Assembly: GCA_036004505.1 (NCBI GenBank)
Contig: DASYRK010000033.1
Span: 52,184 to 116,183, forward strand
Length of the DNA: 64,000 nt
Direction: 5' to 3'
Source: Steroidobacteraceae bacterium
GTDB taxonomy: Bacteria > Pseudomonadota > Gammaproteobacteria > Steroidobacterales > Steroidobacteraceae
Shown: one piece after another, positions 6,132-25,499 of the stretch
Position numbering within the stretch: the stretch's first letter is position 1
How the letters are laid out: each line of letters starts with the position of its first letter
The notes under the pieces: generated by a model
The model's database searches: none
What the model was told of the DNA's origin: nothing
The model's input: the letters and a program-made list of their open reading frames with translations, nothing else
Translations under genes and position numbers: made by a program

Positions 6132-9062
6132 ATGTCGACGAGTAACTCTATTCGGCACGCGGTTCGATACGCGCTGCTAACGAGCGCTGCGGCCGCCGCC
6201 GCAGGGCCCGCATTTGCGGCAGATCAGACGATTCAGGAAGTCGTCGTTACCGGTTCGCGCATCGCGCAGCCGAATCTCGAGACCACCAGCCCGGTTACGC
6301 AAGTCACGGCGGATGACATTGCAGTGCAGGGCGTGACGAGAGTCGAAGACCTCGTCAATCAGCTGCCGCAGGCCTTCGCCGCTCAGAACGCCAACGTTTC
6401 GAACGGTTCGACGGGTACTGCGACAGTCAACCTGCGTGGCTTGGGCTCGCCTCGCACGCTGGTGCTGATCGATGGCCGTCGTATGCCGTATGGCGGCGTG
6501 ACGAACTCTGCAGCCGACCTGAACCAGATCCCGGCCGCAATGGTCGAGCGCGTTGAAGTGCTGACCGGCGGCGCGTCCGCTGCGTACGGTTCGGACGCGA
6601 TCGGCGGCGTCGTCAACTTCATCATGAAGAAGGACTTCGAGGGCGTGCAGTTCGATGCGATGTACGGCCTCTATCAGCACAACAACGATTACGGCGGCCC
6701 CGGCGCCACGAAGCTGCGCGATGTGATCGCGGGCCGCGCTGCCACGAACCCGGCGCAGTTCAAGCTGCCTGATGACAACGTGACCGACGGCGAAGCGCGC
6801 GAGTTCAACATCACGATGGGCGTGAGCACCGAAGACGGCCGCGGCAACATCACCGCGTACGCCGGCGTCCGTGACGACAAGCAAGTGCTGCAGAGAGACC
6901 GCGACTACTCCGCGTGCTCGCTGAGCGCGAACCCAACGGTGCAGTTTGCCTGCGGCGGTTCGGACACCTCGTACCCGGGCTACTTCTACGGCGGCGGCCA
7001 GGGCCTGACCGTCTCGGGCAGCGACTTCATTCCCTACGATCCGAACGCAAACCGCTACAACTTCGGCCCGGTGAATCATTACCAGCGGCCGGACCGGCGC
7101 TACACGCTGGGCGCGATGGGTCACTATGAGCTCGCCGAAGTCGCCGACGTCTACACGCAGTTGATGTTCGCGGACTACGAGTCAGTCGCCCAGATCGCTC
7201 CGGGCGGTGCCTTCTTCGACACCAACACCATCAATTGCGGCAACCCGTTGCTGTCCGCTCAGCAGGCGGCAACTATCGGTTGCGACGCCGCGGCGATTGC
7301 GGCAGACACGATCGTTCCCCTCTACATCGGTCGGCGCAACGTCGAGGGCGGTGGACGCCAATCGAGGTTCGAGAACACCTCGTTCCGCGCTCTGCTCGGC
7401 GTTCGCGGCCAGATCTCCGAGAACTGGGACTACGACGCCTCGGTACAGTACTCATCCGTCGTTGCGGACCAGTCGGCCAACAACTACTTCCACAAGACCC
7501 GCCTGGCGCGCGCACTGGACGTCGTGACCGATCCGAATACCGGCGCGCCGACGTGCCGCTCGGTCCTCGATGGCAGCGATCCGAACTGCGTCCCGTACAA
7601 CCTGTTCACGATTGGCGGCGTAACACCGGAGGCTTTGAACTACCTCCAGGTGCCCGGCCTGCAGCAGGGCAAGATCGAGCAGGAGATCTACTCTGCGTCG
7701 GTCACGGGTGATCTCGGTGCTTACGGCATCAAGCTCCCGACGGCCACAGAGAGCATCAAGGTGGCGTTCGGCGTCGAAAGCCGTCGCGACAGTCTGAAGA
7801 ACGTGACCGACGATCCGACGTCCCAGGACCTCCTGTCGGGTGCTGGCGGCGCGACGATCGGAATATCGGGTTCCACGGACGTCATTGATGTCTTCACCGA
7901 ACTTCGTGTTCCGCTGGTGCAGGACAAGCCGTTCGCCGATCAGCTGGGCCTGGAGCTCGCGTATCGCTACTCCGACTACGATCCGGTCACCACCGACACC
8001 TACAAGATCGGTGCGGACTGGGCGCCGGTGCAGGACGTGCGGTTCCGCGCCAGCTACCAGCGTGCGATTCGCGCGCCGAACGTCGTCGAGCTGTTCACCG
8101 CGCAGGGCTTCAACCTGTTCGATCTGCCGGGCGATCCCTGCGGTGTCGATCAGCCCACGGCTACTCGCGATGCCTGTATTGCGAGCGGCGTGCCGGCAGC
8201 GGTATTCGACGATCCGGCCCGTCGGGCGCGTCTGGACAGCCCTGCTGGCCAGTACAACTTCCTGCAGGGCGGCGACGTCAACCTGCAGCCCGAAACGTCG
8301 GATACGTACACGTACGGCGTGATCTTCCAGCCGCGGTTCCTGCCGCACCTGGCGATGTCGATCGACTACTTCGACATCTCCATCGAGGACACGATCTCCG
8401 TGGTCGGAGCCGACACCACCCTGCGTGCCTGCTACGACTTGGGGATCCAATCGTCCTGCGGCCTGGTTGTGCGCAATCCGGGTAACGGTTCGCTGTGGCA
8501 AGGCGATGGACACGTGATCGACCTGAACACCAACATCGGTTCGCTCTCGACGAAGGGTGTGGACCTGAGCCTGAGCTACACCGGCGTCGAGCTGGGCGGC
8601 ATGGGCGAGTTGAGCTTCAACCTGGTCGGTACGTATCTGGATGAGCTGACCTACATCTCGGGCATTCCGGGCGACGTCCCGACCGAGTGCAAGGGCAAGT
8701 ACTCCGGCGCCCTCTGCGGCATCCCGAACCCCGACTGGCGGCATCACTTCCGCATGGGTTGGGAGACGCCGTGGAACGTCGACCTGTCGCTCACCTGGCG
8801 CTACTACGCCGAGGTGTCGAACATCGTCCCGGCGACCGCTGCCAACATCGACTACAAGCTCGGTTCGCGGAACTACTTCGACCTCGCGGCGAACTGGGCT
8901 GTGACCGAGAAGGCGTCGGTGCTGTTGGGCATCAACAACATCCTCGACAAGGATCCGCCGATCACGTCGGCGACGGGTACTACGGGTAACGGCAACACGT
9001 TCCCGCAGACCTACGACGCGCTGGGCCGCTGGATCTTCCTGCGCGCTTCGGTCGGGTTCTGA
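6132..9062 (+). CDS. TonB-dependent receptor (Oar-like, cysteine-rich loops)
   Basis: Signal peptide, TonB box EVVVTGSRI, plug motifs (NLRGLG, LVLIDGRR, ERVEVLTGGASAAYGSDAIGGVVNFI), C-terminal GINNILDKDPP...FLRASVGF and a strong AGGAGG SD. Confidence 0.96.
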   Translation: MSTSNSIRHAVRYALLTSAAAAAAGPAFAADQTIQEVVVTGSRIAQPNLETTSPVTQVTADDIAVQGVTRVEDLVNQLPQAFAAQNANVSNGSTGTATVNLRGLGSPRTLVLIDGRRMPYGGVTNSAADLNQIPAAMVERVEVLTGGASAAYGSDAIGGVVNFIMKKDFEGVQFDAMYGLYQHNNDYGGPGATKLRDVIAGRAATNPAQFKLPDDNVTDGEAREFNITMGVSTEDGRGNITAYAGVRDDKQVLQRDRDYSACSLSANPTVQFACGGSDTSYPGYFYGGGQGLTVSGSDFIPYDPNANRYNFGPVNHYQRPDRRYTLGAMGHYELAEVADVYTQLMFADYESVAQIAPGGAFFDTNTINCGNPLLSAQQAATIGCDAAAIAADTIVPLYIGRRNVEGGGRQSRFENTSFRALLGVRGQISENWDYDASVQYSSVVADQSANNYFHKTRLARALDVVTDPNTGAPTCRSVLDGSDPNCVPYNLFTIGGVTPEALNYLQVPGLQQGKIEQEIYSASVTGDLGAYGIKLPTATESIKVAFGVESRRDSLKNVTDDPTSQDLLSGAGGATIGISGSTDVIDVFTELRVPLVQDKPFADQLGLELAYRYSDYDPVTTDTYKIGADWAPVQDVRFRASYQRAIRAPNVVELFTAQGFNLFDLPGDPCGVDQPTATRDACIASGVPAAVFDDPARRARLDSPAGQYNFLQGGDVNLQPETSDTYTYGVIFQPRFLPHLAMSIDYFDISIEDTISVVGADTTLRACYDLGIQSSCGLVVRNPGNGSLWQGDGHVIDLNTNIGSLSTKGVDLSLSYTGVELGGMGELSFNLVGTYLDELTYISGIPGDVPTECKGKYSGALCGIPNPDWRHHFRMGWETPWNVDLSLTWRYYAEVSNIVPATAANIDYKLGSRNYFDLAANWAVTEKASVLLGINNILDKDPPITSATGTTGNGNTFPQTYDALGRWIFLRASVGF

Positions 9063-9085
9063 TAAGGATCTGAGATTGGAAACTG

Positions 9086-9119
9086 GCGGCGGTCTCGAAA
9101 GGGACCGCCGCTTTTTTTT
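9086..9119 (+). terminator. Rho-independent terminator of the TonB-dependent receptor gene
   Basis: GCGGCGGTCTC-GAAA-GGGACCGCCGC hairpin followed by T8. Confidence 0.9.
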
Positions 9120-9129
9120 CGCAAGTTTT

Positions 9130-10977
9130 TCAGCGAGCCGCCAAGCGCTCGACGCGCGCGATCTGCTCGGCAAGCGAGGGCAGGACAGCCTCGATCTCGG
9201 CGGCGTGGCGCCGCCATTTGTCGGCGCTGGGGGCCGATACCGTGTACCTGGACAAGCGCAGCGTAAGTGACGGCTCGTCCCAGTCGAACCCAGTCGCCGC
9301 ACACAGCCGACGGATCTCGGCCACCGGATCGGCGACCAGCGCGTCGTAGCGCGTGATCGTCAGCCGCTCGGCCGGCAAGGTCTCGATATCGTCCAAGAGC
9401 AGCCGTGTGGCCGCATTCCATTGCGCCGCGACGATCTCGTGCAGCGGCCGCCCGATCAGCTCGCGCCAGCCCGGCACGAGCAGCAGCGACCACGGTGCGC
9501 CGGTCCAGCCCGGCAGTTGCGGATACGTCCGGAACCGCCCGGTCGTCCACGCCTCGATCATGCTCGACAGCACCTGCCGCGGATCGCGATACAGGTAGAT
9601 GAAGCGCGCCTCCGGGAAGACGCGCGTGAGGAACGGCACGCGCAGCGAGTTCTTCGGCGTCTTCTCCAGCATCCGCACAGCTCGACCTGGCTGCGGCTTC
9701 CGGCCTTCCCTGTCGCGCAACGCTTCATGGAAGCGACGCCGCAGCGTTTCCGCCATCGCGGGCGTCGCATCCGCCGCGAGCAGGCGATTCGATTCGAAGC
9801 CGCGCGATTCGGGGCTGAGCTGCGGCACGCCCTCGATGAGCTGGTGACTCTCGTCGCCGATCGTGAACACGCCTGGCGCGCGCGCCAGCGTCTCGAACAG
9901 CATCGTCGAGCCTGAGCGCGGCGGGCTGACGATGAACACCGGCCGATCGAACACAGGGTCGCGGCCAGTTGCCGCAGCAGGCACTGGCGCCGGCTGCGCA
10001 GCGCCGACGCGCTCACGGACCTCGGGATCCGCGCTGCTGCGCCGATCGGCGAGCGCAACGTTGAAGACCCAGCCGTCGAGCGCCGACATCAGCCCGATCG
10101 TGTTGGCGAGTGCGACGTCCGAGGCGCCGAGCGCCAGCAAATCGCGCCGCCCCGCATCGAGGAGCGCGCGATAGCGCGGCCAGCCTTCGTGCCGTTCGCC
10201 ATATGCGGACCAGAGCCCGTGCCAGTCGCGCACGAAAGTCAGCAACCGCTGCTGAATCGCCGGCATGCTGCGATGTTGCAGCGTCTCTGCGAGCGCGAAG
10301 GCTACGTGCGCGCGTATCTCCCAGGGCGTCATTACGTCCGGCACGTTCTCGGACTCGAAGTCGAGCGACGGCCGCGACTGCGGATCGGGCGCAACGAACG
10401 CCGCCTGCCAATCCGTGCCGACGCGCGTGTGCGGGCGCGCCCGGGCCACGAGCTGCCAGAAGCCGATCCCGCCGACGGTGTCGGCCACCAGATGGATTCG
10501 CGGCAGCGAATGATCGTTGACGACGTTGTGCATGCGCCAGGTGTCGAACAACCAGCACTCGCCGGCGCGCATGTTGATCTCGGCGTCGCCGCAACTGAAT
10601 CGCACCGTCGGCTGCGTCACGATCGGCACGTGCACGCGCACCCGCTCGCGCCAGTAGTAGTTCACGTCGACGTGCGGCGTGACTTCCGCCTGCCCGGAAA
10701 GACGCATCAGCCGCGTGCGACCCCACGTCGCGCCGATGCTGTGCAGGACCTGTTGCAAATACGGGCAGCGTTCCAGATGCCGCGTCGGCAGCATCGGTCC
10801 GGCGACGGCGTCGCTCTCCGGATCGCCGCCGGTCGTGATCAGGGTCAGCGCATCGTTGCCGGGATAGCCCTGCGGATGCGGCCGCCAATCCGACTCTGCG
10901 ATCGCGCCGACTTCGGCTGCGAGCGCTGCCGCATCGAACGACAGAGGCAATTGCAGGAACGGATGCTGGAGCTTCAT
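9130..10977 (-). CDS. Asp/Asn beta-hydroxylase (AspH)-type dioxygenase fused to a sulfotransferase domain
   Basis: N-terminal RLMRLSGQAEVTPHVD...RVHVPIVT...WLFDTWRMHNVVN...RIHLVAD. C-terminal VFIVSPPRSGSTMLF (5'-PSB loop), LEKTPKN and FIYLYRDP (3'-PB). Confidence 0.88.
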   Translation of the reverse strand: MKLQHPFLQLPLSFDAAALAAEVGAIAESDWRPHPQGYPGNDALTLITTGGDPESDAVAGPMLPTRHLERCPYLQQVLHSIGATWGRTRLMRLSGQAEVTPHVDVNYYWRERVRVHVPIVTQPTVRFSCGDAEINMRAGECWLFDTWRMHNVVNDHSLPRIHLVADTVGGIGFWQLVARARPHTRVGTDWQAAFVAPDPQSRPSLDFESENVPDVMTPWEIRAHVAFALAETLQHRSMPAIQQRLLTFVRDWHGLWSAYGERHEGWPRYRALLDAGRRDLLALGASDVALANTIGLMSALDGWVFNVALADRRSSADPEVRERVGAAQPAPVPAAATGRDPVFDRPVFIVSPPRSGSTMLFETLARAPGVFTIGDESHQLIEGVPQLSPESRGFESNRLLAADATPAMAETLRRRFHEALRDREGRKPQPGRAVRMLEKTPKNSLRVPFLTRVFPEARFIYLYRDPRQVLSSMIEAWTTGRFRTYPQLPGWTGAPWSLLLVPGWRELIGRPLHEIVAAQWNAATRLLLDDIETLPAERLTITRYDALVADPVAEIRRLCAATGFDWDEPSLTLRLSRYTVSAPSADKWRRHAAEIEAVLPSLAEQIARVERLAAR

Positions 10978-10989
10978 GGGCTGGCGAGC

Positions 10990-12588
10990 TCAGCGCAGCG
11001 GGTTGCCGTCCGTGTCGACGAGACCGGCCTCATTGAGCCGCCGCAGCACCGGCTGCAGCTCGCGCTCGAAGTGACGCCACTTCTGCACGGACGACCGATA
11101 GATCGGCCTGCGTACCTGCACCGCGCTCGCGGTCGTGGATGCCTTGGTCGAGCGGTGGAACTCGAGCACCTGGTCCTCCCACGGCAGCCCGCAATGCTCC
11201 AGCAGCCGGTGGCTCTGCGCCTGTGGATCGGCGACCAGGTCCTCGTAGCGCACGTCGAGGATCACGCCGGGCATGACGGCATGCCAGTGATCCATCATGC
11301 GGCGATAGGCGATGAAGTATTCCGCGAGCTCGTCGAGCTGGTAGGAGAAGTGGTACGCGTTGATGAACAGCGTCTTGAACACCGCGTAACAGGTATCCAT
11401 TGGATCGCGCGTCAGGTGCACGATCGCGGCCTGCGGCAGCGCCTTGTGGATCAGTCCGGCGTAGCGGAAGTTGAACGGCAGCTTGTCGATCGTGTAGCGC
11501 TGGCCGCCGGCCAGATCGCGCACGGCCGTCAGATAGTTGCGGCCCAGCGCGCCGAAGTCCATCTGCAGCGAGGCGCGCAGCAGGTCGGTGTCGGCCAGTC
11601 CCAGGCGCGCGTGCGTGGCGCGCGCCTGAGCCGTCATCTCTTCCGGAAAATCCACCGCCTCGCCGACCGAGGTGACAGCGGAGTGGTTGCCCAGCATCCG
11701 CTCGACCAGCGTCGTCCCCGTGCGCGGCATGCCGACGATGAAGATCGGCCCCGGCGTCTGGTCGCCGTCGTGCAGCGACTGCATCGCCTCCGCCGTGTAG
11801 TGCGCCATCACGTTGCCCATCGCGCGGACGTCGTTCGCGCTGTCGTACGTCAACGTGCCGCGCTTGATGCGGTTGGCCTGCAGCAGCGTTTCGAACGACT
11901 GCGCGTACTCGCCGATGTCCTCCAGCTCCTTCGCGAGCGAATAGGACACCAGCATCGTGTCGATCTCGCGCGCCCGCGGCCGCGCCAGCGTCGCGCGCAG
12001 CTCGGCGACGTGGTTGGCATCGCTCTTCGCCGTCGCAAGCTGCGAACGGATGTGCCACGCGTAGCCGTTGCCTGGCGCGATTTCGAGCACGCGCACCAGC
12101 AGCGCATCCGCCTCCGCGAGCTCGTTCAGATAGAAATGACTGAGCGCTGCGCGATACAACAGCGTCGGGGCGTTGGGGGCGATCTCGAGCGCCCGGTACA
12201 GCAGCGCCTTCGCCCGGGCGGCATCGTTCGACTGCAGGTAGATCGCCGCGACGGCTTCGACCAGGTCCGCATCCGGCGGCGAGATCTCGATCGCGCGTTC
12301 GGCTGCAGCGAATGCCTCGGAGCGGCGCCGCAGCGCCATCAGAACCTGCGCACGCTTGAACTGCAGGACCGGATGCTCGCCATCGCGCACCAGCGCTGTA
12401 TTGGCGATCTCCAGCGCCCGGGTGACATCCCCGCGCGCCTCCTCGACCTCGCAGGCGAGCAGGGTGGCGGCGATGCCGGGGCTCGCTTGAGTCACTTGCG
12501 CAGACAGTGCCTGCGCCTCCTGAATCCGCCCGCGCTGGAGCAGCTCGCGCGCTGTGCGAATAGTCTGATCGACAGCTGAAGTGTTCAC
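10990..12588 (-). CDS. TPR-repeat sulfotransferase (Sulfotransfer_3/TPST-like)
   Basis: Several N-terminal TPR-like helices, then PIFIVGMPRTGTTLVERML, DKLPFN and IVHLTRDPMDTC. The GTG start at 12588 overlaps the upstream TGA (GTGA). Confidence 0.9.
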   Translation of the reverse strand: MNTSAVDQTIRTARELLQRGRIQEAQALSAQVTQASPGIAATLLACEVEEARGDVTRALEIANTALVRDGEHPVLQFKRAQVLMALRRRSEAFAAAERAIEISPPDADLVEAVAAIYLQSNDAARAKALLYRALEIAPNAPTLLYRAALSHFYLNELAEADALLVRVLEIAPGNGYAWHIRSQLATAKSDANHVAELRATLARPRAREIDTMLVSYSLAKELEDIGEYAQSFETLLQANRIKRGTLTYDSANDVRAMGNVMAHYTAEAMQSLHDGDQTPGPIFIVGMPRTGTTLVERMLGNHSAVTSVGEAVDFPEEMTAQARATHARLGLADTDLLRASLQMDFGALGRNYLTAVRDLAGGQRYTIDKLPFNFRYAGLIHKALPQAAIVHLTRDPMDTCYAVFKTLFINAYHFSYQLDELAEYFIAYRRMMDHWHAVMPGVILDVRYEDLVADPQAQSHRLLEHCGLPWEDQVLEFHRSTKASTTASAVQVRRPIYRSSVQKWRHFERELQPVLRRLNEAGLVDTDGNPLR

Positions 12589-13535
12589 CGTGGCATTGTA
12601 GCCGCGTGCAAGCGCAGGAGGCGTTCGAGTTGCGGCCGCGCGAGCGAGTCGATCGCCCGACGCAGCTCGGCCGAAGCGGCGCCCTGCTTGCTGGCAACGT
12701 CGGATTTGAACTCCGCAGCCGTGCCGATTGCGGCTTTCGCGTGCCGCCGCGCCCCCTCGGCGATCCGGTCCCGTTGCGAGGGATCGACCGATAGCGAGAA
12801 GTGTGGCGCGACGATCTCCCATACTGCGGCCGGCAGCGACTCATACGGCACCAGCCGTCCCCGGCCGGCGTCGAGCCCCGCAGCCGCCGCGCAGAATGCG
12901 CCATAAACGCTCGCCACGAACTCTTCCCGCGATTTCGCAGCGTGGTCGGGATCCACGCGCGCGGCGAGCTCGCGAGCCGCCTCCGCCGTGCCCTGGAACC
13001 AGCCCGGCGGACTCGCGATGAGCGACACGCCCACCTCGACCGGATCGCGAAAACTCAGCACCCACGGCGTGTCCGGGAAGGCTTCCGCCACGACGTCGCA
13101 ATAGAGCGTGTTCCAGCTGCTCAGCTTCAGGACGTAGCGCCCACGCGCGTGGCGCGCGAACGCGGCTGCCAACGATCGCAGCGCTGCGACCCGATCGGCG
13201 CGCGGCCAGCGATGCGGGGGCGCGAGGATTTCGTTGACCGGCTGGGGCTCGGCGTACACGACCAGGCCGTCGAGCCGCTTGAGCGACTGCGAAACCAGCG
13301 TCGAGCCGCACCGTGCAACATGAAAGATGATTCCGGACGGCGCCGCCTCGCGCGCCAGCCGGGCGCCATCCCGGACGACCTGCACGATCCGCTCCTCGGC
13401 CGGGACCCGCGCGATCGTCTCCTGCATGAACGCGTCCTGCAGCTCGTCGCGGCCGATCTGGCGGAGCGCCAGGTACAGGCCGGTCGGCGCCAGTCCCGCG
13501 CGCACCGGAAGTCCGGCCTCCTCATCCTGCTGCAT
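12585..13535 (-). CDS. Sulfotransferase-like P-loop protein
   Basis: GIIFHVARCGSTLVSQ, YAEP, VLKLSSW, LSFRDPVEV. Start taken at MQQDEE (13535). Confidence 0.72.
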   Translation of the reverse strand: MQQDEEAGLPVRAGLAPTGLYLALRQIGRDELQDAFMQETIARVPAEERIVQVVRDGARLAREAAPSGIIFHVARCGSTLVSQSLKRLDGLVVYAEPQPVNEILAPPHRWPRADRVAALRSLAAAFARHARGRYVLKLSSWNTLYCDVVAEAFPDTPWVLSFRDPVEVGVSLIASPPGWFQGTAEAARELAARVDPDHAAKSREEFVASVYGAFCAAAAGLDAGRGRLVPYESLPAAVWEIVAPHFSLSVDPSQRDRIAEGARRHAKAAIGTAAEFKSDVASKQGAASAELRRAIDSLARPQLERLLRLHAATMPR

Positions 13536-17275: not shown

Positions 17276-18756
17276 ATGTCGAGTTCGATTCCAGCTTCGC
17301 GGAGACGGGTCTGCAGCGGCGCGACGTGCGCCGCGTAGTTGCGCCAACGGCCCGAGGAGCGATGATACAGACGCTCACGCACTTGCCACACGCTCGCGGT
17401 TTTCACTGCGCGCGCTGACTGCTCGAACGACAGGCACGCTTCTTCCCATTCGAGACCGCAGAACGCCGTGAGTTTTTCGATGACCGGGCGCGGCTCGTGC
17501 ACCAGCCTGTCGTAGTCGAGATCGAAGATGTCCGCGCCATAGAGCGTCTTCCAGTGCGCCAGCAACCGTCGGTACTGGACGTAGTAATGCGCGATGTCCG
17601 CGAGATCGAGCGAGTAGCTCATGCTGTGATCGAGATGCAGGAAGTAGATCGACAGGCAGTTGTCGAGCGGATCGCGGGTCGTGTGCACGATCCGGGCGTC
17701 CGGAAACAGGCTCTTGATGAGGCCGATGTACAGAAAATTGTCCGGGCGCTTGTCCGTGACTCGGTCGCCGCGCGGGAACAGTCGCGCGAGCATGTCCAGA
17801 TAGCGCGCGGACAGTTGCTCCAGCTGAGCCTGCGTCACACTTTGCATCGTGGCTGGAAACGGCGCGAGCGTCGTGCGCACGAGTGAGGGCAGGAATGCCA
17901 GCTCGCCACCCGCCGTCACGCGCGAGTGCGCGGCGAGGATCTGCTCCGCGAGCGTCGAGCCGGAGCGAAACATCCCGCAGATGAACAGCGGACGCGTGGA
18001 CTGCGACGAGCGTGCTGCTGCGGGCTGACCCGGCCGGAACGTCGCGATCAGCTCGTCGACGAAACGCTCGTGCGCGCGCGCGTCGTAGACGCCAGTGCCC
18101 GGCGCAGCGCTCTGCCGACTGTCTCGATTCGCGGCTGCGTAAGCGGCAAACGCGGCGTCCCACGCCTTGCAGGAGTCCAGCGCCTTGCCGAGTGCGAAGC
18201 CGAGTTCTGCGCGATCTGCAGGCGACGTGCGCGCGTCAGCGATTGCCGCGCGCAACCTCGCGACCAGCGGATCGTCAGCGCCCGCAACCTTGTGCAACCC
18301 CGCGTAGCGCGCCAACGCGGTATGGCAGCGCGGATCGAGCGCCAGGATTTTCTCGTAGAGCGCGCTTGCTTCTGCCTGCTTGCCGAAGTCTTCGCGCAGG
18401 TTCGCGAGATTGAGCAGGGCAGGGACGTAAGCAGGCTCGAGCGCCAGCGCCGCCTGCAGCTCGCGCTCGGCCGCGTCGTCCTGGCGCAGGTAGTCGGAAT
18501 AGATCACGCCGCGGTTGAGGTGAACTTCTTCGGGCCCGGAGACGCCGCGATCGAGCGCCTGCTGATAGGAGGCGAGCGCGGCATCGAAGCGTCCTGCGCG
18601 CCGCTGTAGCAGCGCGAGGTTGTACCAGGTGTCCGGCAGATCGGGCCAGCGCGCGAGCAGGCGCTGATAGACGGCTTCGGCCTCAGTGAGGCGCCCGGCC
18701 TTCTCCAGCGCTGCCGCGCTGTGCAGCAGAGCCTGCGGATCGCTGCTGTCGCCCAT
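17272..18756 (-). CDS. TPR-repeat sulfotransferase
   Basis: About 4 TPRs (WYNLALL, HLNRGVI, ALLNLANL), then PLFICGMFRSGSTLAEQIL, DKRPDN and IVHTTRDPLDNCLS. Confidence 0.9.
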   Translation of the reverse strand: MGDSSDPQALLHSAAALEKAGRLTEAEAVYQRLLARWPDLPDTWYNLALLQRRAGRFDAALASYQQALDRGVSGPEEVHLNRGVIYSDYLRQDDAAERELQAALALEPAYVPALLNLANLREDFGKQAEASALYEKILALDPRCHTALARYAGLHKVAGADDPLVARLRAAIADARTSPADRAELGFALGKALDSCKAWDAAFAAYAAANRDSRQSAAPGTGVYDARAHERFVDELIATFRPGQPAAARSSQSTRPLFICGMFRSGSTLAEQILAAHSRVTAGGELAFLPSLVRTTLAPFPATMQSVTQAQLEQLSARYLDMLARLFPRGDRVTDKRPDNFLYIGLIKSLFPDARIVHTTRDPLDNCLSIYFLHLDHSMSYSLDLADIAHYYVQYRRLLAHWKTLYGADIFDLDYDRLVHEPRPVIEKLTAFCGLEWEEACLSFEQSARAVKTASVWQVRERLYHRSSGRWRNYAAHVAPLQTRLREAGIELDI

Positions 18757-18768
18757 ATCTCGAGAGCG

Positions 18769-19434
18769 CTACGTGGTCGTCCACATGCGCATCAGGTTCT
18801 GGCGCACGACGTCGAGCCGCACGCGGTTCTCCCAGCGCATCGTGGTGCCTTCGAGCGCGGCGATTTCGTTCAGCTCGTACACCTGCATGCGCAGATGCGG
18901 ATCGGCGATGAAGCTTTCGATGAACGTGATCGCCACCAGCCGCTCGCCGGAGCGCACCGGAATGACTTCGTGCAATGTGGTCGAGGGGTACAGGATCGCT
19001 TCACCCGCTGCGCCCTTGAACGCGATCGCCTGGTTGCCGATGATGATAGACAGCTCGCCGCCCTGGTACGTCGCGGGCTCGCTGATGAACACCGTACAGG
19101 AAACGTCCGAGCGCAGCCGCGCGGCTCCCAGCGGAATGAGCGCGGCGTCCGCGTGCGCACCGTACTTCATGCCCGGCGAATAGCGGCTCATGAGCGGCGG
19201 CGCGACGCGCTTCGGCAGTGCGAAATCCATGAACTCGCGCGAGCGCGCGAACGCGCCGCTCACCAGCTGCGACACCTCGGCGTTCTTCGGATCGCTGGTG
19301 TCGGCCTGCTGGTTGTTCTTGGTCTCGTTGGCGGGATTGCTGGCGCGACCTTCGACGAAGCGCAGCTCCTGGCTCAACGTGGTCAGCCGCGCGATCTCCG
19401 GCGGCGTCAGCAAATTGCGAATCTTCAGCAGCAC
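18769..19434 (-). CDS. PKHD-type (PiuC/YbiX-like) Fe(II)/2OG hydroxylase
   Basis: PPLMSRYSPGMKYGAHAD, RSDVSCTVFISEPATYQGGEL, YPSTTLHEVIPVRSGER. GTG start at 19434 has an AGGAG SD. Confidence 0.88.
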   Translation of the reverse strand: MLLKIRNLLTPPEIARLTTLSQELRFVEGRASNPANETKNNQQADTSDPKNAEVSQLVSGAFARSREFMDFALPKRVAPPLMSRYSPGMKYGAHADAALIPLGAARLRSDVSCTVFISEPATYQGGELSIIIGNQAIAFKGAAGEAILYPSTTLHEVIPVRSGERLVAITFIESFIADPHLRMQVYELNEIAALEGTTMRWENRVRLDVVRQNLMRMWTTT

Positions 19435-19459
19435 GACGGATCTCTCCTGCAGGAAACAT

Positions 19460-20653
19460 CTAGACGCTCGAGCTCGGTTGCGTGCCGTTGAAGGCATCGG
19501 TCGCCGCGATCACCTGACCGATCGCCGCGCGCTCTTGCGGCGACAGCCGCGGACTCCACACGTCGCAGATGAAAATGATGCGGGTCTGGTCGCTGTCGTT
19601 CCAGGCCTCGTGCTCGATCGTATCGTCGAACACCCAGGCTTCGCCCAGGCGCCACTGGCGCGTTTCGCCGCCGACGCGGAAGCCGCAGCCCGGCGGCACG
19701 ATCAGCGGCAGGTGCACGACCAGCCGGAAGTTGGCAATGCCAGTGTGCGGCGGGATGCGCGTGTGCGGCTGGAGCACGGAGAACAGCGCCGACGGCGAGC
19801 GCAGCGGCACCTGCGCCTGTGGCAGCCGCGCCAGGACCTGCATCGTTGCCGGCGCCCGGTTGCAGCGCTCCGCGATCGGTTGCCCCTTCTCGTAGAAATG
19901 AAAGGCGCTCCAGCGCGGCGAATGATTCAGCTCGCGCCACTGGTCGAGCGGCATGCGATCGTCGTAGTGAATGTACGGCGCGAACCCGGCCTGGTCCTCG
20001 CGCAGGATTCCCGCCAGCTCGCGCTGCATCGGCTCGGTCGCCGCTTCCAGCTCCTCCAGCCACGGAAACTCCGCACGCTCGTAGAACTCGATCGCTGGCA
20101 GGCCCGGGAAGTAGTACTCGAGCGGCTCCTGCTGGTAGCGCTTGCGGACGCGCAGCGTCGTCGCGATGAACGCCTCGACGCGCTGCTGCTCGGCCGGTGC
20201 GCATTGGCGCTGCGTTTCGCCGACCCGCGCGCGGATGAAGTCGTGCAGCTCGCCCGTGTGCCGGCCGTGGATTTCGCGCCCGTGGGCGACAGCCTGACGC
20301 GTCGGCTCGTCCAGGTACTGGTCCGGAGGAGCGTTCGAAAGAGCAGCGCCATAGGTACTCGCTGCCGCCTTCATCCGGCCTTCCCGCTCCAGCAGCGTTG
20401 CGCTCATCAACAGCGCCGGGAAGTTCCGCGGCTCGATCCGCATGACCTCGCCCAGGGCGGCGAATGCGCCTTCGGAATTGTTCAGGCGGCGCCGGACGGC
20501 GGCGAGATTCAGCCAGCCCGGAATGCTGGCCGGGTCGGCGGCGACCAGTCGCAACAGCAGCGCCTCCGCCGTGGCGAAATCGCCAGCCGCGAGCGCCTGC
20601 ATGGCTGCCTTGTTCAGGCCGGCGGGATTCTCACCATGGGAATGCGGCTGCAT
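19460..20653 (-). CDS. TPR + aspartyl/asparaginyl beta-hydroxylase domain protein
   Basis: TPRs, then WSAFHFY, FSVLQPHTRIPPHTG, VVHLPLIVP and WVFDDTIEHEAWN. Start uncertain. Confidence 0.88.
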   Translation of the reverse strand: MQPHSHGENPAGLNKAAMQALAAGDFATAEALLLRLVAADPASIPGWLNLAAVRRRLNNSEGAFAALGEVMRIEPRNFPALLMSATLLEREGRMKAAASTYGAALSNAPPDQYLDEPTRQAVAHGREIHGRHTGELHDFIRARVGETQRQCAPAEQQRVEAFIATTLRVRKRYQQEPLEYYFPGLPAIEFYERAEFPWLEELEAATEPMQRELAGILREDQAGFAPYIHYDDRMPLDQWRELNHSPRWSAFHFYEKGQPIAERCNRAPATMQVLARLPQAQVPLRSPSALFSVLQPHTRIPPHTGIANFRLVVHLPLIVPPGCGFRVGGETRQWRLGEAWVFDDTIEHEAWNDSDQTRIIFICDVWSPRLSPQERAAIGQVIAATDAFNGTQPSSSV

Positions 20654-20767
20654 GTCGAAGAAAGCTCGAGGTCGAGTGCGTGGCGCCACTATAGCGTCCC
20701 CACTATCGCCCGGTCATGGGTCATAATGCGCCGCCGCGCGGTGAGCTGTGCGGCCGCAATCACGCTC

Positions 20768-21775
20768 ATGAACATCAACGAGATCGACCGGGTGCTCGCG
20801 GCAGAGCCGCGCAATGTTCGCGCCCTTATTCTCAAGGCGGATCATCTGGCGAGTGCCGGCGACGCGCGCGCGGCTTCGTCGTTCTACCTTGCGGCGCTGC
20901 GGGCCGCCGGACCTGCGCAGCAGGTGCCGCGGGAGCTGCTGCCGGACCTGCAGCGGGCGCGCTCGATGTACGAGCGCTACGCGAACGAATACCAGGACTA
21001 CATCGTCAGTCAGCTCGCGGCGCGCGGCTTCGACCGGGCCACCAGCAGTCAGCGGTTCGCGCAGTCGCTCGACATCGTCCTCGGCAAGAAGCGGATCTAC
21101 CTGCAGCAGCCTCGCTACTACTACTTTCCGGGCCTGCCGCAGATCCAGTTCTACGGGCGCGAGCAGTTCCCGTGGCTCGATGCGCTGGAGCGCGAGACCG
21201 ATGCGATCGCCGCCGAGCTGCAGGCGGTGATGCAGCAACCCACCTCGTTCGCACCGTACGTGCAACCCAAGGCCAATCGCCCGCCGAACGAGCAGGCGGG
21301 CATGGTGAACAATCCCGCGTGGAGCGCTTTCTATCTATGGAGGAACGGCGAGGTCGTCGCCGAGAACGCTGCGCGTTGTCCGCGCACGATGCAGGCGCTG
21401 CAGGACGTGCCGCTCGCGCGCGTGGCGAACCGCTCGCCATCGATCCTGTTCTCGCTACTGCAGCCCGGCGCGCACATTCCGCCGCACAATGGCCTGGTCA
21501 ACACGCGGTTGATATGTCACTTGCCGCTGATCGTGCCGGCGCAGTGCACGTTCCGCGTCGGCAACGATCAGCGCGACTGGCAGCAAGGGCAAGCCTGGCT
21601 GTTCGACGACACGATCGAGCACGAGGCGTGGAATCGCAGCGCCGAGACCCGCGTCATCCTGTTGTTCGATGTGTGGCGGCCGGAGCTTTCGGCAGAAGAG
21701 CGTGAGCTGGTCGTGGCGCTGTTCGACGCGATCGACGCGCACGGCGGCGGCCGCAAGCCCGAGTGGGAGATCTAG
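20768..21775 (+). CDS. TPR + aspartyl/asparaginyl beta-hydroxylase domain protein
   Basis: C-terminal part of the listed 19190..21775 ORF: WSAFYLW, FSLLQPGAHIPPHNG, ICHLPLIVP, FDDTIEHEAWN. Start at MNINEID (alternative 20726). Confidence 0.88.
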   Translation: MNINEIDRVLAAEPRNVRALILKADHLASAGDARAASSFYLAALRAAGPAQQVPRELLPDLQRARSMYERYANEYQDYIVSQLAARGFDRATSSQRFAQSLDIVLGKKRIYLQQPRYYYFPGLPQIQFYGREQFPWLDALERETDAIAAELQAVMQQPTSFAPYVQPKANRPPNEQAGMVNNPAWSAFYLWRNGEVVAENAARCPRTMQALQDVPLARVANRSPSILFSLLQPGAHIPPHNGLVNTRLICHLPLIVPAQCTFRVGNDQRDWQQGQAWLFDDTIEHEAWNRSAETRVILLFDVWRPELSAEERELVVALFDAIDAHGGGRKPEWEI

Positions 21776-22263
21776 AGGACCCGTTTGACCTTGAGGACGC
21801 GGCCGCTCGGCGTCGACATCCGGAACGAGTTCAGCGCCGCGCGCGAGATCGTGACTTCATGACCGACTTCCAGGAGCGGCGAGCTCGAGCCGCTCGTCTG
21901 ACGCCACTGCTGTCCGTTGTCGAGATTGATGACGAGCGCACCGCTGGCGTCGTGACTCAACGCGGTGACGTGCGCGCTGACCGAAGTCAGCTCTTCCCGT
22001 TCGATCTTCTGTGCCGGCTCGGTCCCGCGCATGCTCGATGCGCCGAAGCTGGCTTCGGCTGAGCGCTCCGGTGCGGCGGCCGCTGAGTCGGACGACAGGT
22101 GCTCGATCGTCCGGTCGTAGCACGCCAGCCGCTCGGAACTATTTTTCACGTTGGCGCAGGCCCGCAGCGCCGGCGGCACGGCATCTGCGGCCGCGTGTAC
22201 GACGCCAGCGCCAAGCAAAACAACGGCGGCGACGGCGAACGTCGAGGTGCAACGTGCAGGCAT
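21772..22263 (-). CDS. Small exported protein, paralogue 2
   Basis: Signal peptide, ACANVKNSSERLACYD, VSAHV..GALVINLDNGQQW. ATG at 22263 is coupled to the upstream TGA. Confidence 0.8.
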   Translation of the reverse strand: MPARCTSTFAVAAVVLLGAGVVHAAADAVPPALRACANVKNSSERLACYDRTIEHLSSDSAAAAPERSAEASFGASSMRGTEPAQKIEREELTSVSAHVTALSHDASGALVINLDNGQQWRQTSGSSSPLLEVGHEVTISRAALNSFRMSTPSGRVLKVKRVL

Positions 22264-23564
22264 CAGTGTTTCTCGCCGAGGGGCGCCGAGTCGTCGTAAT
22301 ACCGCGCGATGCCCGTCACCATTGCGCTGACCAGATCGCGCTCGGCCGCGGTCAGGTACGGATTCCAGACATCCAGGATGAGGATCGCGCGCGGCATGTT
22401 GCTGTCGTTCCATGCTTCGTGCTCGATCGAATCGTCGAACACCCAGGCTGCACCGGGCAGCCACTCGCGAGTCGTCGAGCCGACACGGAAGCGGCAGCCC
22501 GGCGGAATGATCAGCGGCATGTGCACGATCACCCGCGTGTTGGTGACGCCGGTATGCGCAGGAATGTGCGACTTCGCGTCGAGGATCGAGAAGAACACGG
22601 TCGGTGCGTACCCGGCGATCTGCAGCAGCGGCAGCGTACTGAGCAGTTGCGCCGTGCGGGGACAGCGCTGCAGGTGTTCCTCGACAGGCTTACCGTCACG
22701 CCACAGATAGAAGGCGCTCCAGCGGCGCGAGTGATTCAGCTCGGCCCACTGATCGAGCGGCACGCCCTGCGGATAAGCGACGTACGGTTCGAGGCTCGCG
22801 GCGTCCTCGGTAAAGACGCGCTCGAACTCCTCGCGAATGTCGGCGGTCGCAGCTTCGAGCCTATCGAGCCACGGAAACTCCGCGCGCGGATAGAACTCGC
22901 GCGCCGGCAGCTGCGGGAAATGCAGGAACGTCGGCTGCGGCGTGAAGATCCGCCGGCGGCCGAGGAAACCGGCGACGCAGTGGTCGAAGCGATCCTGCTC
23001 CGCAGCGGCATGGCGCGTGCGCAAGTCCTGAAGCTGCTCGCCCAGATGAGATTCGAGCGCTGCGTCGTTCGCTTTGGTTGCTTCGACCGCCTTGTCGATC
23101 AGCCCGCGCAGCGCGCCGGGAAGGCTCGCGCCCGGCGCAATGGTCTGCAGCGCGTTGTGATACACCTTCGCAGCGGCTCGCGTCTTGCCTTGCGATTCCA
23201 GCAGCGTTGCTTTTTGCAATAGTGCGAACAAGTGCCGCGGTTCCACTGCAAGCACGCGCTCGATGATCCCCATTTCATCGGCAGCGAGCCCCAGGCGGCG
23301 CAGCGCGCCCGCGAGATTCATCAACAGGCGCGTGTTCGCGCCGTCGCGCGCGACCGCGCGTTCCAGCAACTCGCGCGCGGCAGCTGCATTACCGCTGCGT
23401 AACTCGCGCAGGGCGGTCTCGTTGAGGATTGCAGGATGCTCGGGATCGACGGCTTTGACGCGCAGGAGCAACGCATCGGCGCGCGCACGATCACCGTTTG
23501 CGAGTGCGCGCTCAGCGTGCGCGATCAGCTCGCTGACCTCGCTGGCTGCCTGCGTCGCGCTCAA
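22263..23564 (-). CDS. TPR + aspartyl/asparaginyl beta-hydroxylase domain protein
   Basis: About 4 TPRs, then WSAFYLW, FSILDAKSHIPAHTG, IVHMPLIIP and FDDSIEHEAWN. TTG start has a GAGGAG SD. Confidence 0.88.
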   Translation of the reverse strand: MSATQAASEVSELIAHAERALANGDRARADALLLRVKAVDPEHPAILNETALRELRSGNAAAARELLERAVARDGANTRLLMNLAGALRRLGLAADEMGIIERVLAVEPRHLFALLQKATLLESQGKTRAAAKVYHNALQTIAPGASLPGALRGLIDKAVEATKANDAALESHLGEQLQDLRTRHAAAEQDRFDHCVAGFLGRRRIFTPQPTFLHFPQLPAREFYPRAEFPWLDRLEAATADIREEFERVFTEDAASLEPYVAYPQGVPLDQWAELNHSRRWSAFYLWRDGKPVEEHLQRCPRTAQLLSTLPLLQIAGYAPTVFFSILDAKSHIPAHTGVTNTRVIVHMPLIIPPGCRFRVGSTTREWLPGAAWVFDDSIEHEAWNDSNMPRAILILDVWNPYLTAAERDLVSAMVTGIARYYDDSAPLGEKH

Positions 23565-23647
23565 TCGAATCTCCTCACCGCCGATCTGAGTAGTCCGGGC
23601 AGTCTAGCAAGCGTGCGCGGCATGATCGACAATGCAGCAGGCCTTCA

Positions 23648-24382
23648 TTGTCCTTTTGTGCGCAGACGATCGTGCCTGCAGTCTTCTCCCTCGCGATCCT
23701 GGTGTCGTTGCTCGCCTGCAGCGCGCGTGCGGATGCCGTCGACAAGGCGTCGAAGGAATCCTTCGAGTTCGCCGGACTGAAGCGCAACTACGCGCTGTTC
23801 GCGCCGCCGACGGTGGCTGCGTCGGGCGCGCCGCTGCTCGTGTTGCTGCACGGCTCGTTTGGCAGCGGCGCTGCGATCGTCAGCTGGTGGATGCCGCTCG
23901 CGCAAGAAGAGGGCATCGTGCTTGCGGGGCCGGACGCGCGCGAGACCGAGGCGTGGCAGCTACGGGCGGACGGACCGGAGTTCATTCGCGCGCTGATCGA
24001 CGACGTGGCCGCGAAACATTCGATCGATCGCAGCCGCATCTATCTGTTCGGCAGCTCCGGCGGCGCCGTCTATTCGCTGACGTTGTCGATGCTGGAGTCG
24101 GAATTGTTTGCGGCGACTGCGGTGCACGCGGGCGCGTGGCGCCAGCCGAGCGAGTTCCGCGCCGTGCCGTACGCGCGCCGCAAGATTCCGATTGCGATCT
24201 TCATCGGCGATCGCGACGAGTACTTTCCGTTGATCGCCGTGCGCAAGACGCAGAAGGCGCTCGAGCGGGCGGGTCATAGCGTGAGCGTCACGGTGATCCC
24301 GCGTCACCGCCACGCATATTCGGAGGTCGCTGCCGAGGTGAACCGCAGCGCGTGGGAATTTCTGAAGGGCAACCGACTATGA
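23648..24382 (+). CDS. Exported alpha/beta-hydrolase (PHB-depolymerase/LpqC-like esterase)
   Basis: Hydrophobic N-terminus, LLVLLHGS, IDRSRIYLFGSSGGA (GxSxG), GDRD and a C-terminal His. Exact start uncertain. Confidence 0.75.
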   Translation: MSFCAQTIVPAVFSLAILVSLLACSARADAVDKASKESFEFAGLKRNYALFAPPTVAASGAPLLVLLHGSFGSGAAIVSWWMPLAQEEGIVLAGPDARETEAWQLRADGPEFIRALIDDVAAKHSIDRSRIYLFGSSGGAVYSLTLSMLESELFAATAVHAGAWRQPSEFRAVPYARRKIPIAIFIGDRDEYFPLIAVRKTQKALERAGHSVSVTVIPRHRHAYSEVAAEVNRSAWEFLKGNRL

Positions 24383-24855
24383 CAACGATGTACCCGACTC
24401 TTGCCGCAGTGTTGCTGGCAGCAGCGGCGATTCAACCTGCGCTGGCCGGCGACGATCTGTCGCAGCGCATCGCCGCGTGCACGCGCGAGCGGGACGACGC
24501 ACGACGCCTCGCGTGCTTCGATCGCGCGGCCGCGCCCGCAGCCGACGCGAAGAAGGTGGATGCGACGCAGGACTTCGGCGTTCACGGCAGCGAGCTGGCG
24601 CGCAACCGCGACGATGACGATCCCAAGCAGGACAACACACCGAAGCGCATCAGCGCCACGGTCGCCGGCGTCGAGAAGCGCGCGCGCGGCGAGCTCCTGG
24701 TGACGCTCGACAACGGCCAGGTCTGGGCGCAGAAAGAAGTGGGTCCATATTTTCCGCTCAAGGTCGGCGATGCGGTCTCGATCATTGCCGGCACGTTCGG
24801 CTCGCACAAGCTGGTGGTCGCGAGCCGCGCGACCGCAGTCACCCGGGTGCGCTGA
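24379..24855 (+). CDS. Small exported protein, paralogue 3
   Basis: Signal peptide, ACTRERDDARRLACFD, ISATV..GELLVTLDNGQVW. ATGA overlap with the esterase. Confidence 0.8.
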   Translation: MTTMYPTLAAVLLAAAAIQPALAGDDLSQRIAACTRERDDARRLACFDRAAAPAADAKKVDATQDFGVHGSELARNRDDDDPKQDNTPKRISATVAGVEKRARGELLVTLDNGQVWAQKEVGPYFPLKVGDAVSIIAGTFGSHKLVVASRATAVTRVR

Positions 24856-24857
24856 CC

Positions 24858-25499
24858 ATGGCCGACATCATGCCGTTCTTCGCCGTCCCGTTCGGGTTCG
24901 CGCGGCTCGACAACTGCGCGGCGGTGAACCAGGAATTGCGGACGCTGTTCCTCGCGCGCACCGCGGCCGGCGGCGAGCACGCCAATCCGCGGCCGCTCAC
25001 GCAGCGTAACAACCAGGTCTTCGAGAGCAACTTCGGGCTGTTCCGCTCGCAGGAGCGTTGCCTGCAGCAGCTCAAGGAATTCTGCTGGCGGCACCTGATC
25101 AAGTGCGTCTGCGACGTGAACGGGTACGACGACGCGATGCGCAGCCGGCTGCTGATCTACTCGGACGCGTGGTTCCACGTCACGCGGCGCGGCGGGTTCT
25201 TCGGTCTGCACAATCATCCGAACGCGTCGTGGTCCGGCGTGTATTGCGTGGATCCCGGTCAGCGCGGCAGCGGTCTGCTGTCGTTCGTCAATCCGCTGCT
25301 GGCGTCCAACATGTACCTCGACGCCGCGAACGCCAGCATGCGCGGCGCGTTTGCGTCCGGCGTGCGCCAGATCGATCTGGAGGCGGGCCAGCTGGTGCTG
25401 TTCCCATCATGGGTGCTGCACGACGTGAAGCCGTACGAAGGCGACGGCGAGCGCATCACTGTCGCGTTCAACTGCTGGTTCCAGCTGAAAGATGCTTAG
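24858..25499 (+). CDS. TIGR02466-like putative 2OG-Fe(II) oxygenase
   Basis: AWFHV..GGFFGLHNHPNASWSGVYCV...GQLVLFPSWVLHDVKPY...RITVAFN. Confidence 0.85.
   Translation: MADIMPFFAVPFGFARLDNCAAVNQELRTLFLARTAAGGEHANPRPLTQRNNQVFESNFGLFRSQERCLQQLKEFCWRHLIKCVCDVNGYDDAMRSRLLIYSDAWFHVTRRGGFFGLHNHPNASWSGVYCVDPGQRGSGLLSFVNPLLASNMYLDAANASMRGAFASGVRQIDLEAGQLVLFPSWVLHDVKPYEGDGERITVAFNCWFQLKDA

Follow-up and report, generated by a model that had tools for sequence, protein, structure and literature searches.

Gram-negative bacteria take up nutrients mainly through TonB-dependent receptors. Why do some of these receptors travel with cytoplasmic oxygenases, as in Fiu-YbiX, PiuA-PiuC and CciT-CciO, a question that was sharpened by Caulobacter genetics in 2025? 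A very rich natural version of this receptor-oxygenase pairing is encoded in a stretch of 64,000 nucleotides (hereafter the window; contig DASYRK010000033.1, positions 52,184 to 116,183) from a Steroidobacteraceae bacterium, in which 17 genes (g1 to g17, window positions 6132-25499) form an island of seven transcription units, with genes for candidate protein substrates among the enzyme operons. This island, the largest and most expanded copy seen, belongs to a conserved module that joins a large Cys-rich receptor to cytoplasmic tailoring enzymes inherited with it. As to what these enzymes act on, the best reading, which we adopt tentatively and at less than even confidence, is that they modify the precursors of envelope proteins in the cytoplasm before export.

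The host is a soil gammaproteobacterium with a genome of 5.45 Mb in 129 contigs (96% complete); close homologues carry the annotations Steroidobacteraceae and Povalibacter. Since the GC content of the window is ~66%, gene models were picked by third-position GC (GC3) and checked with hidden Markov models (HMMs). The domain census was made by HMM scans (Pfam, NCBIfam), and profile-profile comparisons were made with hhalign. An earlier reading of this DNA (the sequence-only reading) had listed 17 genes, eight Fe(II)/2-oxoglutarate (2OG) oxygenase domains from five families, an esterase (g15), three paralogous exported proteins (g6, g13, g16) and one receptor (g1), all of which were recovered. 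The units are g1 alone, g4-g3-g2, g5-g6-g7-g8, g11-g10-g9, g12 alone, g14-g13 and g15-g16-g17. The translational coupling claimed for many of the genes is seen as start/stop overlaps of 1-4 nt at six junctions (g4/g3, g5/g6, g6/g7, g7/g8, g14/g13, g15/g16). Signal peptides were identified on g1, g6, g13, g15 and g16, and the tailoring enzymes have no N-terminal hydrophobic segment.

A core of ten genes (receptor, g9, exported paralogue, g12, g11, g10, g7, g2, g3 and g8) was found in near-constant order in ~16 species-level loci from Steroidobacteraceae-like genomes. For the distribution across the class, we used a sample of 300 evenly drawn Gammaproteobacteria. Sulfotransferases with tetratricopeptide repeats (TPRs) that resemble g9 were present in 58 of these 300 genomes, often in tandem arrays, while g14-like fusions of TPRs and an AspH-type oxygenase (TPR-AspH) were rarer (12 of 300). 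All six full-length TPR-AspH copies outside the own genome sit in a module with a g1-like receptor of ~900-1240 aa, which has 9-17 Cys, but 4 in the shortest. These six modules contain 1-5 TPR-sulfotransferases and usually TIGR02466, Sel1-P4H, AspH-sulfotransferase and g7-like genes as well, and of the non-enzyme genes the receptor alone is shared by every version of the module. The sequence-only reading had named a lack of co-occurrence in other genomes as evidence against a joint system; in these loci the genes do occur together.

The receptor gene g1 (6132..9062, plus strand) is monocistronic and encodes 976 aa with the Pfam domains Plug and TonB_dep_Rec_b-barrel, a TonB box and 12 Cys in six loop pairs. 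The plug is nearest to that of BtuB, and the PiuA-like structures (PiuA/PirA/FepA) were matched by the plug only (E ~4e-12). In phylogenetic placement g1 falls in a large Cys-rich receptor clade with module receptors from other families. A clade dedicated to module receptors was considered and rejected: they share one large clade, in which non-module receptors are interspersed.

Tight linkage to a receptor is also what favours a small-molecule route, in which the enzymes would make, or degrade after import, a hydroxylated and sulfated ligand that is amino-acid-derived or siderophore-like and possibly cell-associated. We consider this route a close rival of our reading, possible and somewhat doubtful. 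It gains from the exported esterase g15, which could open an imported ester, from the presence of the AspH fold in free-proline hydroxylases and from the hydrophobic character predicted for the TPR-AspH pocket. Moreover, the route follows Iyer, Abhiman, de Souza and Aravind (2010; PMC2938197), who predicted siderophore-like products for receptor-linked neighbourhoods of JmjC and 2OG oxygenases, as well as models 1 and 3 for CciT-CciO, from a study whose authors favour a self-made iron ligand. What the route would need is, however, missing from every module version. The sequence-only reading had reported no visible scaffold synthase, and in the island, its flanks and the distant modules we found no nonribosomal peptide synthetase (NRPS), polyketide synthase, NRPS-independent siderophore synthetase, ATP-grasp or other ligase, nor a precursor peptide. 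The same regions yielded no exporter of the ATP-binding cassette (ABC), major facilitator or resistance-nodulation-division (RND) type and no inner-membrane importer.

Nor was a Fur box or riboswitch detected: the best Fur-box candidates in the window reached 12 of 19 consensus matches, all at sites outside the intergenic regions of the island, and the 500-nt leader of g1 gave no riboswitch or other RNA element at the gathering threshold, only a single chance-level match (E 0.64). That six enzymes bear TPR or Sel1 arms, and that as many as five TPR-sulfotransferases stand in tandem, would likewise be unusual for tailoring of a small molecule. A ribosomally made substrate exported by Sec fits the gene content, since it requires neither a synthase nor an exporter nor an inner-membrane importer.

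The TPR-sulfotransferases of the own genome bear on the same choice. Four of the five loci abut a receptor gene, compared with a chance expectation of ~2% per locus (~56 receptors among ~4900 genes; 56 plug-domain receptor open reading frames (ORFs) were counted in the genome), and these receptors come from different clades. Since they differ in both clade and neighbours, the link suggests an association with receptors as proteins and not with one ligand, which argues against a small-molecule route and for modification of envelope proteins. That a TPR-sulfotransferase always accompanies a receptor was rejected, given four of five loci in the own genome versus three of 20 class-wide.

Three loci outside the island in which a TPR-sulfotransferase abuts a receptor gene have different contents. 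One has an S15 peptidase and a LysR regulator (C126:61454-65544), the second a beta-lactamase-like hydrolase (C50:27807-32364) and the third a GH20 hexosaminidase and a gene similar to enzyme I of the phosphotransferase system (C121:2-3054). They look like loci for uptake of peptides, beta-lactam-like compounds and chitooligosaccharides, respectively. In other Gammaproteobacteria (L117, L118, L131), tandem TPR-sulfotransferases adjoin very large secreted repeat proteins whose C-termini run from a Gly-rich stretch through a hydrophobic helix to an Arg-rich tail, resembling a PEP-CTERM or similar sorting signal; these repeat proteins are possible protein substrates in receptor-free contexts.

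Four of the eight oxygenase domains are of the AspH type (g2, g11, g12, g14) and match PF05118 with E values from 1e-15 to about 3e-49. Three of them form separate enzymes: g11 (19460..20653, minus strand; E 2.7e-44 plus TPR), a TPR-AspH with the rare two-His HxG...H iron site; g12 (20768..21775, plus strand; E 3e-49; alternative start at 20726), which has a short helical N-terminus; and g14 (22263..23564, minus strand; E 3e-42 plus TPR). The likeness to human AspH (PDB 5JQY, 6YYY) extends to the whole architecture, with a TPR arm followed by a double-stranded beta-helix oxygenase. In a residue alignment to human AspH, g14 gave E 1.6e-27. For g11, an AlphaFold2 model (pLDDT 87) had the TPR and oxygenase regions of human AspH as its best Foldseek match in the PDB (370-381 columns, E 7e-20), and its oxygenase domain alone gave a TM score of 0.84 against the same protein.

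To read the active sites, we mapped the residue roles given by Pfeffer et al. 2019 (PMC6817910) onto 14 bacterial TPR-AspH sequences. In human AspH the iron site consists of H679, G681 and H725, 2OG is bound by S668, R735 and H690, and the carboxylate of the substrate Asp/Asn is held through a salt bridge and hydrogen bonds by K666, R688 and Q627 (PMC6817910). The equivalents of the iron and 2OG residues, and of R686, are invariant in all 14 bacterial sequences. The carboxylate binders, by contrast, are replaced in 14 of 14: K666 by L, F, M or V, R688 by V, I or L, and Q627 by A or S. Further differences are that the counterpart in g14 of the acidic loop is not acidic and that the bacterial enzymes are cytoplasmic, not lumenal. 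The trio of g11, g12 and g14 is therefore AspH-like in architecture, and its members are, judged from these alignments, probably not Asp/Asn hydroxylases; their substrate pocket is predicted to be neutral or hydrophobic. Because the three carboxylate-binding residues are replaced, filing the bacterial TPR-AspH proteins under EC 1.14.11.16 is unjustified. Nor was an EGF-like AspH substrate (C-x-D/N-x4-Y/F-x-C, with a Cys3-Cys4 ring, in an oxidising compartment) found among the receptor loops and paralogues examined. One candidate for the AspH consensus, loop A of g1, fits N-x4-F-x-C and was rejected, the match being lost in more distant module receptors.

LpxO and OlsC hydroxylate acyl chains, and NoeE and LpsS are sulfotransferases for lipopolysaccharide (LPS), capsule or lipids. 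The island could thus be imagined to hydroxylate acyl groups in the manner of LpxO and OlsC and to sulfate LPS, capsule or lipids in that of NoeE and LpsS, an alternative already raised from the sequence alone. The AspH domains share PF05118 with these enzymes and score about as well against OlsC (E down to 4e-31, up to 108 bits) as against human AspH; the position of K666 is hydrophobic, as it is in the LpxO-like protein of this genome; g2 has a weak match to NoeE; and in Xanthomonadales g2 homologues lie near waaA, an ArnT-like gene and tolC, if our naming by eye is correct. However, the island AspH domains reach only 47.5-108 bits against curated cut-offs of 450 and 500, ~4-5 times below. 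They are also fused to TPRs and have no membrane anchor, unlike the LpxO-like gene, and the trio keeps the human-type HxG two-His site, as opposed to HxD in the LpxO-like protein. TPR arms and a best match to TPST point to polypeptides. The low scores and the lack of membrane segments weaken this alternative, and we regard it as improbable. The LpxO/OlsC-like ORF itself (C83:79206-80126) is membrane-anchored and retains R688 together with its HxD site, which makes it an internal contrast to the HxG trio. A fourth TPR-AspH paralogue (C102:46631-48037), 50% identical to g14, adjoins a hybrid sensor histidine kinase, and its nearest receptor is 25 kb away.

The remaining four oxygenases belong to four other families. 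The JmjC/cupin-4 protein g5 (13631..14824, plus strand; PF08007, E 5e-25) matched MINA53, NO66, YxbC and YcfD in the PDB, and the ribosomal oxygenases MINA53, NO66 and YcfD are its nearest relatives. The P4H-type enzyme g8 (16349..17275, plus strand; 2OG-FeII_Oxy_3, PF13640, E 4e-11) has a Sel1-like helical N-terminal arm, and g17 (24858..25499, plus strand) belongs to TIGR02466 / 2OG-FeII_Oxy_5 (PF13759, E 2e-20; 64.1 bits against a TIGR02466 cut-off of 62.5). The earlier count of TPR or Sel1 modules on six enzymes held for g3, g9, g11 and g14, where TPRs are significant. On g12 (TPR, E 0.05) and g8 (Sel1, E 0.17) the matches are below threshold; in a distant g8 orthologue Sel1 is significant (E 3e-7).

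The last oxygenase, g10 (18769..19437, minus strand; ORF open to 19497), is of the PKHD type and matches NF003974 with 192.8 bits (cut-off 143), which places it in the PiuC/YbiX/CciO family. In CciT-CciO, PiuA-PiuC of Pseudomonas and Fiu-YbiX of E. coli, a receptor is likewise co-conserved with a dioxygenase of this family. In Caulobacter crescentus the function of CciT in iron uptake strictly needs the cytoplasmic PiuC-type dioxygenase CciO, although cells lacking CciO still produce CciT (PMC12004947). The study does not settle on a mechanism, its authors favouring a self-made iron ligand, and no inner-membrane transporter or synthase is known for the pair (PMC12004947). CciT-CciO is the closest tested counterpart of the island, and the dependence of a receptor on its dioxygenase has been shown for this pair only. 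The need of CciT for CciO, together with the family membership of g10, favours modification of envelope-protein precursors. The island differs from these systems in that g1 is not an orthologue of CciT, PiuA or Fiu (976 aa, 12 Cys), that the window yielded no Fur box, and that, besides g10, it contains seven other oxygenase domains, five sulfotransferase or sulfotransferase-like domains and exported proteins.

Those five domains, also claimed by the sequence-only reading, are of unequal standing. Three are clear (Sulfotransfer_3, E 2e-30 to 2e-51) and contain the motifs for binding of the 5'-phosphosulfate (5'-PSB, xRSGST) and the 3'-phosphate (3'-PB, RDP): the g2 fusion, g3 (10990..12588, minus strand; PRTGTT, TRDP; PF13469, E 1.7e-51, with TPR families) and g9 (17272..18756, minus strand; FRSGST, TRDP; PF13469, E 1.3e-40, with TPR). 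The other two are weak. The divergent g4 (12585..13535, minus strand; ARCGST, FRDP) scores 23 bits against a Pfam threshold of 27 for PF13469, keeps the RCGST and RDP motifs and aligned with the g3 family in hhalign at E 3.6e-6. The degenerate sulfotransferase-fold protein g7 (15312..16352, plus strand; HTGHVGST) has no Pfam match, has neither the basic residue of the PSB motif nor the RDP of the 3'-phosphate motif, and was assigned by hhalign against TPR-sulfotransferase families (E 3.5e-5, probability 72%, and 4.9e-5); it is conserved in 15 loci.

The best non-TPR match of g9 in the PDB is a protein-tyrosine sulfotransferase (E ~1e-6), a remote similarity. In g9 only, the second Glu of the TPST 'CGEE' motif, presumably the catalytic base, has a Glu counterpart in the alignment. 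The likeness to TPST1/2 and to Xanthomonas RaxST, which acts on RaxX, covers the Sulfotransfer_3 domain, both phosphate-binding motifs and this Glu. Apart from the remoteness of the match, the differences are the N-terminal TPR arm and the absence from the island of a RaxX-like precursor and a RaxA/RaxB-type exporter. Intergenic gaps in the island are <=100 bp except upstream of g1, and no RaxX-type gene was found in them; no ABC gene or gene for a peptidase-containing ABC transporter was found in or beside the island. The donor 3'-phosphoadenosine-5'-phosphosulfate (PAPS) can be made, since the host genome encodes a CysNC-type adenosine 5'-phosphosulfate kinase. With cofactor and PAPS motifs kept, the enzymes look intact.

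The two chemistries meet in g2 (9130..10977, minus strand; PF05118 + PF13469), a fusion of an AspH-like cupin and a PAPS sulfotransferase that has no signal peptide. Its cupin site is a classical HxD...H (H102-x-D104...H150), and its motifs (HxD...H, PPRSGST, YRDP) are invariant in ten homologues of 57-75% identity. The fusion has >2800 homologues and was found in at least 321 of ~186,000 species genomes, which supports a coupling of hydroxylation and sulfation. It lies directly after a receptor gene in Pseudoxanthomonas. In many other Xanthomonadales (Rhodanobacter, Luteimonas, Arenimonas, Dokdonella) it stands alone among housekeeping genes, which from the ORF sequences we took by eye to be thiC, tolC, waaA and ArnT-like and bacterioferritin-like genes (L020-L083). 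Genes for ppa and an H+-PPase beside a g2 homologue carry Pfam labels in one locus and were otherwise named by eye. Because the fusion also lives alone, the g2 enzyme at least does not need this receptor, and the housekeeping context suggests an endogenous, widespread substrate for it.

YcfD and Tpa1/Ofd1 act on ribosomal proteins. Housekeeping proteins of the cytoplasm, such as ribosomal ones, might then be the targets of the whole set, with the adjacency of the receptor reflecting co-regulation only. The setting of g2, the YcfD/MINA53/NO66 type of g5 and the PKHD type of g10 all speak for such targets. The patchy distribution of TPR-AspH (12 of 300 genomes) fits poorly with a universal target, though, the physical linkage to receptors recurs across families in a way that argues against mere co-regulation, and exported proteins are translationally coupled to hydroxylase genes. 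We consider this explanation very improbable.

Those exported proteins, g6 (paralogue A; 14821..15312, plus strand), g13 (paralogue B; 21772..22263, minus strand, its start overlapping the stop of g14) and g16 (paralogue C; 24379..24855, plus strand, its ATG overlapping the stop of g15), are 29-39% identical to each other and belong to a family of 354 members for which there is no Pfam model. Behind the signal peptide comes a helical hairpin that two Cys hold together (Cys35/Cys47 in g6); a Pro/Ala linker, which varies, then leads to an FGxRG motif and a small beta-barrel. In the hairpin motif C-x11-C-[FY]-D both Cys are invariant, as is RL in the turn, where DD is near-invariant; the +2 residue varies (D, N, K, R), and the paralogues have no conserved Tyr. 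For this hairpin plus a small IF1/OB-like barrel, Foldseek gave no significant match to a solved fold (best E 0.03), and no fold was assigned. Each paralogue is coupled to a hydroxylase gene (g5-g6, g14-g13, g16-g17), and every complete cluster of this lineage contains paralogues. Since the distant modules have none, the paralogues cannot be what the module acts on everywhere, but they may serve as substrates or partners specific to this lineage. A 523-aa ORF joining a g12-like AspH to an exported paralogue (L003:5228-6799) was rejected as a fusion, since its signal peptide is internal; in this long-read metagenome assembly a frameshift is most likely.

How the parts would work together can be outlined for modification of envelope-protein precursors. 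In the scheme that we infer, with respect to substrate identity, reaction order and effect on transport alike, the cytoplasmic TPR/Sel1 arms would hold unfolded envelope precursors before export, namely the receptor, joined in this lineage by the three exported paralogues. The Fe(II)/2OG oxygenases would hydroxylate side chains, the target of the TPR-AspH trio being a neutral or hydrophobic residue and not Asp/Asn. The PAPS sulfotransferases would O-sulfate tyrosines or the new hydroxyls, with both steps coupled in the AspH-sulfotransferase fusion. The modified proteins would exit via Sec, and in the case of the receptor the beta-barrel assembly machinery (BAM), bearing anionic or metal-binding groups needed for uptake.

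This scheme fits best because the enzymes are cytoplasmic and bear protein-recognition arms, their relatives act on proteins, synthases and transporters are lacking, and the receptor is universal; the TPR-sulfotransferases, moreover, adjoin receptors whose specificities are unrelated. Each of the closest relatives of solved structure is a protein-modifying enzyme (human AspH, MINA53/NO66/YcfD, TPST), and the coupling of each exported paralogue to a hydroxylase gene points in the same direction. Modification in the cytoplasm before export is known for other proteins destined for the outer membrane, the substrates of HMW1C and of the Aah/TibC heptosyltransferases. Of the inference of a protein-tailoring system made in the sequence-only reading, the receptor-tied, co-inherited unit, the intact motifs, the protein-acting relatives and the fusion stood, while the label 'AspH' was overstated.

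Several observations weigh against modification of envelope-protein precursors. We know of no precedent for hydroxylation or sulfation of a bacterial outer-membrane protein. Sequence tests for acidic tyrosines and for the AspH consensus in Cys loops revealed neither a modified residue nor a recognition motif: acidic-tyrosine sites are not enriched in module receptors, and the Cys loops are common to non-module receptors and have no conserved AspH-type consensus. The genome contains four further close paralogues of g1, whose neighbours are unrelated and include no such enzymes. Class-wide, a receptor was found within 8 kb in only three of the 20 inspected TPR-sulfotransferase loci. To these are added the solitary g2 homologues of the Xanthomonadales, the confinement of the exported paralogues to this order and the free-proline hydroxylases among the fold relatives of the AspH domains. 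That the TonB transporters of this clade and their periplasmic partners are hydroxylated and O-sulfated before Sec export by TPR-guided neighbours is a claim that we make hesitantly, as rather unlikely on present weighing. If it is true, bacteria would have their own counterpart to the way in which animals hydroxylate and sulfate secreted proteins and receptors, and it would explain why CciT-type receptors need a cytoplasmic dioxygenase.

The theme of the island has been noticed before, as the sequence-only reading also stated. The part of Iyer et al. 2010 (PMC2938197) used here describes neighbourhoods of TonB receptors with JmjC, halogenase and SapC genes, Syn9-gp52-like oxygenases with sulfotransferases, and a beta-hydroxylase plus sulfotransferase with collagen-like or tail-collar proteins. 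Hydroxylation followed by sulfation is proposed there, with siderophore-like products for the neighbourhoods of TonB receptors, JmjC and 2OG oxygenases (PMC2938197). The island shares with the neighbourhoods in that part of the survey a TonB-class receptor, JmjC, classical 2OG oxygenases and P-loop sulfotransferases, and it differs from them in the absence of tryptophan halogenases, SapC, NRPS and collagen-like or tail-collar substrates. The set of TPR-AspH, TPR-sulfotransferase and PiuC-type enzymes is not described in the same part, and a literature search retrieved no product reported for the present gene set. Our comparison assumes that the Syn9-gp52-like family is TIGR02466, an equation not stated in that part of the survey.

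The island is thus an unusually large variant of a theme already noticed, of which the minimal receptor-dioxygenase pair has genetics. New here are the lost Asp/Asn-binding residues of the TPR-AspH enzymes, the hydroxylase-coupled exported paralogues and the receptor as the only universal non-enzyme component. If protein modification is true, the module would represent a new class of envelope-protein modification in bacteria and bacterial roots for the AspH/TPST-type chemistry of animals; if the small-molecule route is true, it would represent a new pathway to a sulfated ligand without a classical synthase.

Some features of the island are of lesser weight. Between the convergent g1 and g2 lies a strong hairpin (9085..9112; 12-bp stem including 9 GC pairs, then TTTTTTTT) with T-runs on either flank, which probably terminates transcription in both directions. 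The esterase g15 (23648..24382, plus strand) is an exported alpha/beta-hydrolase of the PHB-depolymerase/carboxylesterase type with a GSSGG nucleophile elbow. During gene calling, the ORFs at 20716-21705 and 23632-24279 were rejected as off-frame shadows of the real genes at 20768-21775 and 23648-24382, and starts were moved inward for g3 (12588, reset at the GVNTS codon), g4 (13535), g5 (13631), g10 (~19437), g11 (20653), g13 (22263) and g16 (24379).

The left flank of the island contains a UvrA-like gene, an NmrA-type reductase and an OmpA-like barrel, and the right flank DUF192, a GlgC-like nucleotidyltransferase, LEA_2, glycogen synthase, PhaR and an enzyme dependent on pyridoxal phosphate; an RND pump on the right lies >6 kb from the island. 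These flanking genes do not recur with the module elsewhere, save the UvrA-like gene (class II, duplicated ABC; window 2-3670), which lies upstream of the island and also flanks the Povalibacter cluster (L002). Because the two clusters have the same UvrA-like neighbour, the island occupies a conserved chromosomal position.

Four or five close paralogues of g1 (window 6110-9118) were identified, with 83-93% DNA and 82-98% protein identity and a similarity that begins 22 nt before the ATG. They are located at the ends of contigs C23, C42, C41, C60, C61 and C50 (start); since all lie at contig ends, the assembly breaks at a recently amplified receptor family or at strain variants. Directly beside the modules of three distant genomes (G030, G087, G242; L141:4198-7347, L138:15188-17968) there is a sucA-like gene for the E1 component of 2-oxoglutarate dehydrogenase, accompanied in G087 and G242 by the genes for E2 and lpd. 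This adjacency may be due to chance, although the oxygenases do use 2OG as their co-substrate.

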